Under the pieces are notes generated by a model, which was not told the origin of the DNA, did no database searches, and saw nothing but the letters and a program-made list of their open reading frames with translations. Below, in pieces: positions 178 to 4,133 of a stretch of 4,133 nt of DNA. Origin of the DNA: a virus. Taxonomy: Duplodnaviria; Heunggongvirae; Uroviricota; Caudoviricetes. The translations under genes were made by a program, and so were the position numbers. The DNA is taken from IMG/VR virus record IMGVR_UViG_2606217110_000002, one strand, 5' to 3'. Positions within the stretch are counted from its first letter, which is position 1. The number at the start of each line of letters is the position of its first letter.

Positions 178-585
178 ATGGAATTTAAAGATTTACCAAA
201 AGAAATCCAGATAATTGCTGCAACGACACTCGGTGATAGTCTGGTGAAAATTGACCCGGCATACACCAAAAAAGAAACCATCGATAATATGGTTCGTAAT
301 GTGCGCAATGCTTTTTCAGGGCTATATGGTTCTGATAATCAAAAACAGGAAAACGATATTGATGAACGGGTAATTTCTGTTTGCCTGAATGGTCATGTTA
401 TTTCAGCAATCAGAACAGAAACGGCAACTGTTTTTGATTATCTCTGCATGATTCAGAGTCTTGCTGATGTTCTGTTGAAATCAAAAGATTTAGAAAACGA
501 TGCAAATTTACAGGGGCGCACAATAGCACATCCATATGCACATACTTTAGACTCTGTGGATATCAAAGATCCCACAAATCTTTAA
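178..585 (+). CDS. hypothetical protein, 135 aa, AT-rich accessory gene of unknown function
   Basis: Complete ORF from ATG 178 to TAA 583-585. A Shine-Dalgarno GAGG at 168-171 lies 6 nt upstream of the ATG. A rough by-eye count over the first 60 nt gives about 35% GC, below the downstream exonuclease gene. No catalytic motif or known family was recognised. Confidence 0.8.
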   Translation: MEFKDLPKEIQIIAATTLGDSLVKIDPAYTKKETIDNMVRNVRNAFSGLYGSDNQKQENDIDERVISVCLNGHVISAIRTETATVFDYLCMIQSLADVLLKSKDLENDANLQGRTIAHPYAHTLDSVDIKDPTNL

Positions 586-796
586 TGAAATAGTTAACGC
601 GAATTGTACTTGCTCTTTCAGTTGCTTTCAGAATACGCGTTGAAACTGCTGGCGGTAATTTAGTATTCCATTTATTAAAATCATGCCCGGGAAAGTACTC
701 TTCGAAAATACTTTTAACTGCAGACTCGCCTATTGAAATGCTGCTTACCATGCGATTTTGATAAAGGCATTTAGCAATAAGAGTTGATTTTAACAT
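563..796 (-). CDS. possible small hypothetical protein, 77 aa, convergent with and overlapping the 3' end of ORF 178-585
   Basis: It is the only open frame across the AT-rich stretch 586-796, where every + strand frame has stops. The start is ATG (reverse complement of 794-796) and the stop is TGA (reverse complement of 563-565). Only a weak purine-rich stretch (AGAAGAG) precedes the ATG, so the start and the reality of the gene are uncertain. It overlaps ORF 178-585 by 23 bp tail-to-tail. Confidence 0.35.
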   Translation of the reverse strand: MLKSTLIAKCLYQNRMVSSISIGESAVKSIFEEYFPGHDFNKWNTKLPPAVSTRILKATERASTIRVNYFIKDLWDL

Positions 797-870: not shown

Positions 871-1136
871 CATCCGGCACTGACAGTTTACTGAAAGGAT
901 ATATCCCTGAAAAGTCAGGGCATAACACGAAAGCGTACGGCGAAGGCCTTCACCTATGAGGCTTGTCGTTAAATTTAATTCGACCGTACGCTTCCGGTTG
1001 TGGCAATCCGCGAAATGGCGCGGCGGTAAGTATGGCAGGGGGACTATTCTCCCTCCCCTGTGGAGCACCGGGTTGTCAGGTTGACCATACGCCTGAGTGA
1101 CAACCCCGCTGCAACAACCCATGTTGATTACCTTTT

Positions 1137-1180
1137 GGCGGGTATCCGTTTTGTTTTTCCCATGATACCCGCCCCTTTTA
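1137..1180 (+). terminator. putative intrinsic (Rho-independent) terminator, + strand
   Basis: A perfect 10-bp GC-rich stem, GGCGGGTATC (1137-1146) with GATACCCGCC (1164-1173), has a 17-nt loop and is followed by CCTTTTAAA. The T-tract is only 4 nt and the loop is large, so termination would be partial at best. On the - strand the stem is followed by AAAAGG, so it is not a terminator in that orientation. Confidence 0.45.
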
Positions 1181-1183
1181 AAG

Positions 1184-1345
1184 TGAATTTTGTGATGCGG
1201 TGAATGCGGCTCAGCGCACGCGGAACAGTTAAAAAGGCCAGTTGACTTCCGTATTGGTTCTTATGGGTGGGTTCTCTGTATCCGGCGTTAATGGTTTACT
1301 GGTTAACGTCACCTGGAGGCACCAGGCGCCGCATCACAAAATTCA
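1184..1345. repeat. perfect 17-bp inverted repeat (TGAATTTTGTGATGCGG 1184-1200 / CCGCATCACAAAATTCA 1329-1345) flanking a 128-bp segment
   Basis: Verified base by base: the reverse complement of 1184-1200 equals 1329-1345. Allowing G-U wobble it extends outward by up to two more pairs (G1183-T1346, A1182-T1347). The left arm begins 4 nt after the terminator-like T-tract; the right arm ends 5 nt before the GAGGA Shine-Dalgarno (1351-1355) of small ORF 1363-1551. Confidence 0.9.
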
Positions 1346-1362
1346 TTGTTGAGGACGAGATA

Positions 1363-1831: not shown

Positions 1832-4133
1832 ATGAGTAAAGTCTTTATTTGCGCCGCCATTCCGGACGAACAGGCAATAAAGGAAGAAGGTGCAGTCGCT
1901 GTAGCCACTGCCATTGAAGCCGGCGACGAACGTCGCGCCCGTGCCAAATTTACCTGGCAATTCCTGGAGCAATATCCGGCTGCTCAGGACTGCGCTTATA
2001 AATTTCTTGTTTGCGAGGATAAACCCGGTATACCCCGCCCTGCCCTCGATTCCTGGGATGCTGAATATATGCAGGAAAACCGCTGGGATGAGGAGTCAGC
2101 TTCCTTTGTCCCGGTTGAGACTGAATCAGATCCGATGAACGTCACTTTTGACAAGCTGGCCCCTGAAGTGCAGAACGCTGTCATGGTTAAGTTCGACACA
2201 TGTGAAAACATCACCGTTGATATGGTGATTAGTGCACAGGAACTGTTGCAGGAAGACATGGCAACATTCGACGGACATATCGTTGAAGCGTTGATGAAAA
2301 TGCCAGAAGTTAACGCCATGTATCCGGAACTTAAGTTGCATGCCATCGGGTGGGTTAAGCATAAATGTAAGCCTGGAGCTAAATGGCCCGAAATTCAGGC
2401 AGAGATGCGCATCTGGAAAAAACGTCGCGAAGGTGAACGCAAGGAAACCGGAAAATACACGTCTGCTGTTGATCTCGCCCGCGCCAGAGCCAATCAACAG
2501 AACACTGAAAGTTCAACAGGAAAAATCAGCCCGGTCATTGCTGCCACTCATCGCGAATACAAGCAGACATGGAAAACACTGGATGACGAACTGGCCTACG
2601 CTCTCTGGCCTGGTGATGTGGATGCCGGAAACATTGACGGCAGCATCCATCGCTGGGCAAAAAATGAAGTTATCGACAACGACCGCGAAGACTGGAAGCG
2701 TATCTCGGCATCAATGCGCAAACAGCCTGATGCCCTTCGCTACGACCGCCAGACTATTTTTGGCCTTGTCCGTGAACGTCCGATCGACATTCACAAAGAT
2801 CCTGTGGCACTGAACAAATACATTACTGAATACCTGACTACAAAGGGCGTGTTTGAAGATGAAGGAAGAAATCAGAGCGCAACTGATACTCTCTCGTCGC
2901 CAGTACCAGAAACTGATGCAGTGGAAACGGCAATTCCGGACAACGAAAAAACCGAATGCAAAGTGGAAGTCGAACCATCTGTAGAGCGTGAAGGGCCGTT
3001 CTACTTCCTCTTCACCGACAAGGATGGCGAAAAATACGGTCGCGCAAACAAACTTTCTGGTCTGGATAAGGCGCTGGCTGCCGGGGCTACTGAAATCACG
3101 AAAGAAGAATATTTCGCCCGCAAAAACAGTACATACTCAGGTTCACAACAAAATACTGGTGCATCTGACACGACCGCACAGCCAGAACCGGTAAAAGTTA
3201 CCGCTGACGAAGTAAACAAAATTATGCAGGCAGCCAATATCAGCCAGCCTGATGCCGATAAGTTGCTTGCTGCATCACGTGGTGAATTTATTGAAGGGAT
3301 TAGCGACCCGAATGATCCGAAATGGGTTAAGGGGATCCAGACCCGCGATACTGTGAACCAGAACCAGCAAGAAACGGAACAGAACGACCAGAAAGCGGAA
3401 CAAAACAGCCCAAATACGCAACAAAACGAGCCAGAAACGAAACAACCTGAACCAGTAGTGCAACAGGAACCGGAAAAAATCTGCACCGCCTGCGGTCAGA
3501 GCGGTGGTGGCAACTGCCCTGATTGTGGTGCGGTGATGGGCGACGCAACATACCAGGAAACATTCGATGACAAGAACCAGGTTGAAGTTCAGGAAGACGA
3601 TTCGGAGAAAATGGAAGGCGCTGAACATCCACACAAGGAGAATGCTGGCAGCGCTCAGGATCACGCCAGCGATAGTGAAACTGGCGAGACGGCAGATCCC
3701 TTAATTACGGTGAACGGTCATCGCGTTATCACATCCACCAGCAGGACGTGTGACCATCTAATGATCGACCTTGAAACCATGGGAAAAAATCCCGATGCCC
3801 CGATCATCTCAATAGGTGCAATATTTTTCGATCCACAAACCGGAGATATGGGACCGGAATTTAGTAAGACTATCGATCTGGAAACTGCTGGCGGAGTCAT
3901 TGATCGGGACACCATTAAATGGTGGCTTAAGCAATCACGCGAAGCGCAATCTGCCATTATGACCGATGAAATCCCGTTAGATGATGCACTGTTACAATTG
4001 CGGGAATTTATCGACGAAAACTCCGGCGAATTTTTTGTTCAGGTCTGGGGAAATGGAGCCAACTTCGACAACACGATTTTGCGCCGTTCATACGAACGGC
4101 AGGGGATCCCCTGCCCGTGGCGTTACTACAACG
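1832..4133 (+). CDS. large prophage exonuclease, RecE-like / exodeoxyribonuclease VIII-type, with C-terminal DEDD-type 3'-5' exonuclease domain; 5' complete, 3' truncated by the window end
   Basis: ATG at 1832 follows an in-frame TAA (1823-1825) and a GAGG at 1818-1821. Frame 2 translates without a stop to the window end, at least 767 codons; I translated the N-terminal ~117 codons and the zinc-ribbon/DEDD regions codon by codon and the rest less rigorously. It is missing from the supplied track only because it has no stop in the window. The protein starts MSKVFICAAIPDEQAIKEEGAVAVATAIEAGDERRARAKF and contains DKLLAASRGEFIEGISDPNDPKWVKGIQTRD, which I recall (unverified) as conserved in RecE-family proteins. 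All alternative-frame and antisense ORFs in this span are taken as spurious. Confidence 0.9.
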   Translation, partial: MSKVFICAAIPDEQAIKEEGAVAVATAIEAGDERRARAKFTWQFLEQYPAAQDCAYKFLVCEDKPGIPRPALDSWDAEYMQENRWDEESASFVPVETESDPMNVTFDKLAPEVQNAVMVKFDTCENITVDMVISAQELLQEDMATFDGHIVEALMKMPEVNAMYPELKLHAIGWVKHKCKPGAKWPEIQAEMRIWKKRREGERKETGKYTSAVDLARARANQQNTESSTGKISPVIAATHREYKQTWKTLDDELAYALWPGDVDAGNIDGSIHRWAKNEVIDNDREDWKRISASMRKQPDALRYDRQTIFGLVRERPIDIHKDPVALNKYITEYLTTKGVFEDEGRNQSATDTLSSPVPETDAVETAIPDNEKTECKVEVEPSVEREGPFYFLFTDKDGEKYGRANKLSGLDKALAAGATEITKEEYFARKNSTYSGSQQNTGASDTTAQPEPVKVTADEVNKIMQAANISQPDADKLLAASRGEFIEGISDPNDPKWVKGIQTRDTVNQNQQETEQNDQKAEQNSPNTQQNEPETKQPEPVVQQEPEKICTACGQSGGGNCPDCGAVMGDATYQETFDDKNQVEVQEDDSEKMEGAEHPHKENAGSAQDHASDSETGETADPLITVNGHRVITSTSRTCDHLMIDLETMGKNPDAPIISIGAIFFDPQTGDMGPEFSKTIDLETAGGVIDRDTIKWWLKQSREAQSAIMTDEIPLDDALLQLREFIDENSGEFFVQVWGNGANFDNTILRRSYERQGIPCPWRYYN
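3350..3478 (+). other. low-complexity Q/N/E/T-rich linker inside the exonuclease CDS
   Basis: Translation TVNQNQQETEQNDQKAEQNSPNTQQNEPETKQPEPVVQQEPEK. The DNA is T-poor with reiterated gaacca/gaaacg-type units. It probably forms a flexible interdomain linker. Confidence 0.7.
3482..3526 (+). other. CxxC-x7-CxxC motif (putative C4 zinc ribbon) inside the exonuclease CDS
   Basis: Cys codons at 3482, 3491, 3515 and 3524 give ICTACGQSGGGNCPDCGAV. The spacing is typical of a small zinc-ribbon knuckle. Confidence 0.55.
3761..4133 (+). other. DEDD(h)-type 3'-5' exonuclease domain, N-terminal part (continues beyond the window)
   Basis: The motif MIDLETMGKNPDAPIISIGAIFFDP has an acidic D-x-E pair (D 3767-3769, E 3773-3775) at the start of a hydrophobic strand, the classic Exo I motif of DnaQ-like exonucleases. 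The downstream WGNGANFDNTIL resembles the Exo II region. Confidence 0.75.

Follow-up and report, generated by a model that had tools for sequence, protein, structure and literature searches.

What kind of nuclease is encoded by a lambdoid prophage gene that reads in part almost letter for letter like recE and goes under the name of exonuclease VIII in phage records, and does it work with a recombination partner? The question is raised by a 4,133-nucleotide stretch of DNA from a virus of the class Caudoviricetes (IMG/VR record IMGVR_UViG_2606217110_000002; the whole stretch is hereafter called the window), in which positions 1832 to 4133 are occupied by a single open frame of the YdfE family. 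A first-pass annotation made from the letters alone had described this frame as a RecE-like motif, a low-complexity linker and a C4 zinc ribbon fused to a DEDD-type 3'-5' exonuclease domain, and had supposed a recombination exonuclease of reversed polarity, with consequences for its partner. Our analysis recovered the domain swap, with the catalytic domains exchanged at a sharp junction near nucleotide 3707, and found no annealase in any of six genomic contexts of this form. We give a probability of roughly 60% to the reading that the protein is a modular nuclease of the early-left (pL) operon of Qin/Tritos-type lambdoid prophages and that it acts alone on DNA ends.

The catalytic domain

The C-terminal module can be assigned to the DEDD(h) 3'-5' exonucleases. 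A Pfam search with the frame-2 translation, the check that the first-pass annotation had proposed for its DEDD assignment, returned a nuclease family, PF16473 (Rv2179c-like), over residues 642-767 of the truncated window copy (E = 1.2e-45, score 155.8 bits, curated gathering score 27) and over residues 642-813 of a full-length gene of 97% identity, where the match spans profile positions 2-177 of 177 (227.2 bits, E = 1.5e-67). The Exo I residues D646 (3767-3769) and E648 (3773-3775) lie within DLET, inside the string MIDLETMG (3761-3784, residues 644-651), and the Exo II residue D746 (4067-4069) lies within NFD. Exo III (H-x4-D), with H796 and D801, falls beyond the window end at residue 767 and was read in the full-length homologs of strain AST19 (L001), P0001 and phage Tritos. 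All five of these residues (D, E, D, H, D) are unchanged across a MAFFT alignment with six stand-alone phage homologs of 25-60% identity, T4 DexA among them.

DexA, a 3'-5' DNA exonuclease (PMC12153337), was the only solved structure (8KEL, 8KEN) detectable by a sequence search of the PDB. A profile search of the PDB with our alignment A3, which is circular for DexA because DexA is part of that alignment, gave besides it only marginal DnaQ matches. PF16473-type domains are widespread among phages as single-domain proteins, with tblastn matches in 1,617 phage records. The present domain belongs to the same catalytic family, being 25-28% identical to DexA and up to 60% identical to stand-alone phage homologs; however, DexA and its stand-alone relatives are single-domain proteins of about 180-230 residues, whereas here the domain makes up the C-terminal 180 residues of an 823-residue scaffold protein. 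It lacks DexA's extra loops and has a Tyr (Y766) in place of DexA W152, but keeps Asp at the position of DexA D169 and at D718, the counterpart of the DexA 'tetramer' position D90.

In the full-length AlphaFold model the predicted local distance difference test score (pLDDT) of the domain is 65-87, and the only Foldseek matches of probability above 0.8 were DEDDh enzymes (4L8R, 5CY4 and 9F7M, i.e. 3'hExo and oligoribonucleases), none of them of PD-(D/E)XK type. The DEDDh fold is thus assigned from the sequence evidence, which is very strong.

Relation to RecE

From the ATG at 1832, the open frame (frame 2, plus strand) continues for 767 codons without a stop and reaches the final base of the window. 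This ATG is the first start to follow the in-frame stop at 1823, and a GAGG lies ahead of it at 1818-1821. The PHROG 2082 'exonuclease' profile was matched over 1-767 of 823. The nearest relative of the window is found in strain AST19 (NZ_AP043612, 97.3% identity), whose gene product is an 823-residue '3'-5' exonuclease' (WP_244077888). The features of the gene, with residue numbers counted from the ATG, are as follows.

1832-4133, plus strand: gene for the prophage scaffold::DEDDh exonuclease of the YdfE family, codons 1-767 of 823; the frame continues past the window end
1832-2542, plus strand: YdfE-type N-terminal domain, residues 1-237, an ordered alpha/beta plus helical unit at residues 1-205; not the N-terminus of RecE
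2543-2866, plus strand: central helical domain (module B), residues 238-345, distantly common to RecE (about residues 278-360); pLDDT > 90
2867-3241, plus strand: variable region, residues 346-470, a disordered acidic stretch plus a small ordered beta-hairpin/helix unit at residues 385-435 (nucleotides 2984-3136)
3257-3349, plus strand: DKLLAASRGEFIEGISDPNDPKWVKGIQTRD, signature motif of the scaffold family, helical over a short stretch in disordered surroundings; differs from RecE at two positions only
3350-3478, plus strand: disordered linker rich in Q, N, E and P, residues 507-549 (43 residues, with 11 Q, 8 E, 6 N and 5 P)
3482-3526, plus strand: CxxC-x7-CxxC knuckle CTACGQSGGGNCPDC, with C551, C554, C562 and C565
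3527-3706, plus strand: acidic disordered segment, residues 566-625, common to RecE, at whose end the recE homology ends; pLDDT about 30
3735-3742, minus strand: Chi octamer GCTGGTGG, in the 55 nucleotides between the breakpoint of recE homology (about 3707) and MIDLETMG (3761)
3755-4133, plus strand: predicted DEDDh 3'-5' exonuclease domain of Rv2179c/DexA type, of which residues 642-767 of 642-813 are inside the window

The positions that the first-pass annotation had given for MIDLETMG, DKLLAASRGEF (3257-3289), GISDPNDPKWVKGIQTRD (3296-3349), the 43-residue linker and CTACGQSGGGNCPDC were all exact.

The recE product of prophage Rac in K-12 (exodeoxyribonuclease VIII, b1350) carries PF06630 at residues 2-178 (E = 6e-98) and a PD-(D/E)XK-like domain, PF12684, at residues 615-850, in agreement with the PD-(D/E)XK nuclease that the first-pass annotation had ascribed to RecE; a Pfam search matched neither family in the window protein. 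BLASTP aligned residues 262-626 of the window protein with RecE 278-592 (E = 6e-63), and this alignment stops at RecE residue 592. Likewise, positions 261-603 (of 877) of the NCBIfam RecE profile PRK09709 were matched by residues 238-626, and the cutoff of the RecE equivalog model (NCBIfam NF007259) was missed, with 285.6 bits versus 1269. From DKLLAASRGEF onward, across linker, knuckle and acidic tail up to ETGE-ADP, the match to RecE is nearly letter for letter, and the DKLLAASRGEF...GISDPNDPKW motif plus the knuckle is nearly identical to RecE 462-536; the sharing of this motif with RecE, as put forward by the first-pass annotation, was thus confirmed against the Rac protein, for linker and knuckle as well. 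In the DNA the recE-homologous block is window 3251-3705, with 77.8% identity by blastn when the 42-nucleotide indel in the linker is counted (the linker is 14 codons longer than that of RecE, with a pLDDT of about 30) and roughly 90% over ungapped columns, as read off the alignment. Identity to recE drops abruptly after about 3706-3707, 55 nucleotides ahead of MIDLETMG.

Since the N-terminal 260 residues are of YdfE type and not of RecE type, the protein is a three-way mosaic of a YdfE-type N-terminus, a RecE-homologous middle and an Rv2179c/DexA-type DEDDh domain, and the last of these occupies exactly the position of the PD-(D/E)XK domain of RecE. Both are large modular proteins with a C-terminal catalytic domain, encoded in a pL operon, but RecE combines its PF06630 N-terminus and PD-(D/E)XK 5'-3' domain (PF12684) with recT, whereas here YdfE_N is combined with DEDDh and recT is absent downstream.

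The Chi octamer listed above is the only one in the window, and one per 4 kb is unexceptional for E. coli-type DNA; its orientation is the commoner one in Tritos (8 versus 2 in 39.7 kb examined).

The YdfE family and the shuffling of its modules

In K-12, ydfE is a pseudogene cut by IS2 in the defective prophage Qin; over residues 1-257 of the window protein the identity to it is 95%. Homologs of 89-96% identity carry PF27430 (YdfE_N), PF27432 (YdfE_C) and PF16473. On the homology to ydfE and on these Pfam assignments of close homologs, the window protein is classed as a member of the YdfE family. Of 1.84 billion clusters at 50% identity, no more than 256 had a representative recovered by a search with the non-catalytic part (residues 1-640), so that the family is a narrow one of enterobacterial prophages.

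We mapped the modules on long representatives of the scaffold family and found that each of the two N-termini occurs with each of the two catalytic domains: YdfE-N with DEDDh (the present gene), RecE-N with PD-(D/E)XK (RecE), RecE-N with DEDDh (P0128, P0141, P0241 and P0139, the first of them confirmed by Pfam) and YdfE-N with PD-(D/E)XK (P0132, P0201 and P0227). Module B, the central helical domain, is present in most relatives, and many members of the scaffold family have no recognisable catalytic domain. The gene of P0128, which has the N-terminus of RecE, is 93% identical to the present gene from the DKLL motif to 9 nucleotides beyond the stop codon, which marks the segment from the DKLL motif to the knuckle as the crossover zone; it is in this DNA that the 5' and 3' halves of the genes recombined.

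By far the most conserved element of the scaffold is the peptide K-x-LAAxRGE[FY]xxGISDPxDPKW, a consensus that persists in relatives whose overall identity falls to about 20-50% and is found alike with a DEDDh domain, with a PD-(D/E)XK domain or with no catalytic domain. The C4 zinc ribbon that had been proposed downstream of it has to be scaled back. The four cysteines are in place as CxxC-x7-CxxC and are invariant wherever the segment exists (RecE, P0128, P0139, P0135 and P0156), but they form only a knuckle of one lineage: the segment is confined to the RecE-proximal E. coli lineage and missing from most divergent relatives, the Pfam DZR match over it is not significant (E = 0.11), and the AlphaFold pLDDT there is about 55-68.

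Proteins of the same scaffold family that lack a nuclease domain have been described as 'RecE-2' (PMC12315714); we count among them P0125 and about 15 other representatives with YdfE_N and YdfE_C. The present protein differs from these in having a complete and strongly constrained DEDDh domain. At the P0125 loci (L018-L020) and in the about 15 other representatives the proteins have 700-790 residues, and the C-terminal 250-350 residues match no Pfam family or mapped module; these residues may represent either a third effector cassette or a domain-less form. In P0193 (703 residues) the RecE N-terminus, with PF06630 and the DKLL motif, is fused in frame to a RecT domain (PF03837, residues 528-678) and the nuclease domain is lost; a natural deletion that joined recE to recT would account for this, or else an artefact of assembly or annotation.

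Genomic context and the annealase question

Among 5,426 complete E. coli genomes, 2,177 (about 40%) contain 80% or more of the window; strains that bear Shiga toxin (Stx) phages are among them. The gene order in AST19 is ydfC, dicB, a DUF1482 gene (ydfD-like), the exonuclease, excisionase, integrase and the chromosomal potC, and the operon dicF-dicB-ydfD-exo-xis-int is found in phage Tritos and also in K-12 Qin. The exonuclease of Tritos (TRITO_27, L004 17372-19843) is the same gene, with about 90% DNA identity, 823 residues and the same operon, and we saw no essential difference except that, upstream of the gene, the window carries an insertion of 634 bp (176-809) and a dicF allele that has diverged. 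With the same early-left operon as Tritos, the window gene fits the nuclease-only Rec module of lambdoid phages, for which Tritos is the prototype: nuclease-positive, negative for a single-strand annealing protein (SAP), negative for anti-RecBCD and rich in Chi (Genome Res 2025, PMC12315714). Phages with a module of this type also lack an SSB gene. The same study describes DnaQ-like 3'-5' nucleases in lambdoid early-left operons, often adjoining int, and leaves domain shuffling unanalysed. A consensus-match scan found no promoter-like site upstream of the window gene.

The recommended look for an annealase of RecT/Bet type downstream led, in the 97%-identical locus, to (xis)/int instead. In all six contexts of DEDDh forms (the loci of AST19, Tritos, P0128, P0141, P0241 and P0122) the exonuclease is the last gene before (xis)/int and no annealase follows; none is annotated in L001 (AST19) or L004 (Tritos). 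In contrast, all three contexts of PD-(D/E)XK forms (Rac, L016 and L017), among which both types of N-terminus occur, have a RecT-family gene directly downstream, and the RecT Pfam matches have E values of 2e-36 and 1.6e-33. Next to the scaffold-only form (P0125) stand xis/int. In this small sample, which is fully consistent, the PD-(D/E)XK domain moves with RecT and the DEDDh domain moves alone.

Scaffold structure and selection

An AlphaFold model of residues 1-480 has a mean pLDDT of 83, with ordered units at about 1-205, 240-345 and 385-435 and disorder between them; in the variable region the pLDDT is below 50 for residues 347-382 and 439-453 and above 90 for residues 390-435. In the full-length model the linker (502-547) and the acidic segment (574-648) are disordered, and the DKLL motif forms a short helix with a pLDDT of 69-84. 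For the N-terminal part of RecE the function is given as unknown in a 2023 review, in which it is dispensable for basic recombineering and helps linear-linear recombination (PMC11611040).

Comparison with the copies in Tritos and AST19 gave ratios of non-synonymous to synonymous substitution rates (dN/dS) of 0.06-0.07 in the N-terminal domain, 0.06-0.13 in the DKLL motif, 0.3-0.6 in the variable region and 0.35-0.53 in the linker (0.35-0.6 in the linker and acidic segments overall), and the DEDDh domain has zero non-synonymous differences from either copy (dN/dS 0). Full-length copies of 823-826 residues dominate the databases, one 90% cluster alone holding 23,183 member sequences. The gene is intact and under purifying selection, and by evolutionary criteria it is functional.

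Proposed function and alternatives

We propose that the nuclease would remove nucleotides from free 3' ends by two-metal (Mg2+) catalysis with D646, E648, D746, H796 and D801, and that its substrate is most likely DNA, by analogy with T4 DexA and from the position of the gene in the recombination-module slot. It would work alone and not as one half of an exonuclease/annealase pair, and the scaffold, especially its invariant peptide, may direct it either to a DNA structure or to some protein of the host or the phage. Its likeliest task would be to trim 3' tails or otherwise process DNA ends during lytic growth, feeding host RecBCD/RecA, in Chi-rich phages that have neither an annealase nor an anti-RecBCD protein and would rely on host RecBCD and Chi; the production of 3' tails for annealing is unlikely.

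Several points weigh against this proposal. In the literature that we searched we found no biochemical or genetic data and no functional study on this protein or on YdfE, and the contexts compared are few, six versus three. In general, 3'-5' exonucleases usually inhibit recombination and do not promote it, and one-gene modules have been termed 'somewhat suspect' (both PMC12315714). In Foldseek against the PDB the full-length model gave no match at E <= 0.001, with a shallow alignment over the DEDDh domain, and searches with the scaffold against the PDB and BFVD gave no informative structural or sequence relative. Moreover, PF16473 is named after the exoribonuclease Rv2179c, which is an RNase T-like enzyme, and RNA is a possible substrate.

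We hold more tentatively, and doubt rather than expect, a broader picture in which the RecE/YdfE scaffold is a general tethering platform. Its invariant peptide would dock on a host or phage target and effector cassettes would be swapped within the conserved segment, the PD-(D/E)XK cassette together with RecT and the DEDDh cassette alone as an annealase-independent activity. On such a platform the DEDDh activity could possibly blunt 3' tails so that RecBCD loads on the Chi-rich phage DNA, or attack the DNA of competing phages.

Among the alternatives to a solitary DNA-end nuclease of the lytic cycle, a prophage nuclease for defence or superinfection exclusion, degrading incoming and possibly modified phage DNA in the manner of the 'HREX' protein EcD, seems to us improbable. 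EcD, a DexA homolog of E. coli, cleaves DNA with 5-hydroxymethylcytosine (5hmC) and protects against T4 (PMC12153337), the catalytic family is the same, the present protein has the Asp of DexA D169 and an aromatic residue (Y766) at W152, and the gene is extremely common in prophages. However, EcD is a different, stand-alone protein, its primers encoding MIDTET... and ...IPETYD*, and it has Ala at the DexA D90 position where the Asp is kept here. In addition, the gene lies at the distal end of a repressor-controlled pL operon with no promoter-like site upstream, which makes expression in lysogens doubtful, and PADLOC returned only a generic match to a Cas-associated DEDDh protein. We had also considered that EcD might be the present protein itself, an identity ruled out by the same primer sequences.

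We also think it unlikely that the protein is a 3'-5' exoribonuclease of Rv2179c/RNase T type acting on phage or host RNAs such as small RNAs (sRNA) or the 3' ends of transfer RNAs. The names are on the side of this idea, the best Pfam family being 'Rv2179c-like 3'-5' exoribonuclease' and many NCBI copies being entered as '3'-5' exoribonuclease'; Rv2179c is described as an RNase T ortholog, and the top Foldseek matches are oligoribonucleases and 3'hExo. Nevertheless, T4 DexA, the only solved sequence relative, is a DNA exonuclease, and the domain replaces a DNA exonuclease on the RecE scaffold in a recombination slot. Since DEDDh enzymes commonly accept DNA as well as RNA, family names leave the substrate unsettled.

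The partnered recombination exonuclease of the first-pass annotation, in which the opposite polarity would shift the strand on which a RecT/Bet-type annealase is loaded, fares much worse, and we consider it very unlikely. It draws on the scaffold shared with RecE and on the lambdoid recombination-module slot, but six independent contexts, the complete phage Tritos among them, encode no annealase either downstream or anywhere else in the early region; Tritos was scored as SAP-negative (PMC12315714), and RecT follows only the PD-(D/E)XK forms. Least credible of all is a decaying, non-functional RecE-like relic of defective prophages, for which the IS2-cut ydfE of K-12 and the relatives without a catalytic domain could be cited, since full-length copies dominate, dN/dS is 0.06 in the N-terminal domain and 0 in the DEDDh domain, and the gene is carried by Tritos, deposited as a complete phage genome.

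Other elements of the window

Upstream of the gene, a dicF allele at 1131-1185 (plus strand) has the same flanks as the dicF of K-12 Qin and Tritos, but direct alignment shows that 9 nucleotides are deleted and that its core is rewritten; it retains a hairpin, GGCGGGTATC...GATACCCGCC, with a T-run behind it. Rfam, run on the whole window with the gathering threshold and on 560-1850 with E <= 1, missed DicF, as did a search for K-12 dicF that allowed up to 3 mismatches. The 634-bp insertion, relative to both Qin and Tritos, lies between ydfC and the dicF region and holds open reading frames of 135 residues (178-585, plus strand) and 77 residues (563-796, minus strand), 'hypothetical' in RefSeq and free of Pfam matches. 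The leader of dicB (1163-1347, plus strand) shares about 78% identity with the Rac sequence that separates kilS from kilR and has a sub-threshold Rfam match to the sRNA STnc100 (1186-1340, 28 bits versus 47, E = 7e-4); possibly it is a conserved RNA element that precedes the genes of cell-division inhibitors in prophages.

Significance

The gene as such is already known: as had been expected, it is commonly annotated, in thousands of genomes and with named database entries (Pfam YdfE_N, YdfE_C and Rv2179c-like), and its class of module was described in 2025. In the literature searched we did not find an explicit account of cassette exchange between the RecE scaffold and DEDDh domains, of the co-variation with RecT, or of the invariant scaffold peptide. 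The misannotation is systematic, phage records including that of Tritos giving the gene as 'exonuclease VIII, ds DNA exonuclease' or 'exodeoxyribonuclease VIII', and its stand-alone homologs go under names such as 'endodeoxyribonuclease' or 'ribonuclease T'.

The value of the finding lies mainly in annotation. The label 'exodeoxyribonuclease VIII', used in many records, is misleading, since the nuclease domain, the N-terminus and the partner of RecE are all absent, and the polarity is probably opposite. This concerns a gene that is found in about 40% of complete E. coli genomes and yet was never characterised. Furthermore, the co-variation with RecT, in a small sample, together with the conserved peptide provides a handle on the role of the large non-catalytic part of RecE, a question open since RecE was truncated for recombineering. 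If the DEDDh form does aid RecBCD/Chi-dependent growth, or defence, this would be a modest but real addition to the biology of lambdoid phages.

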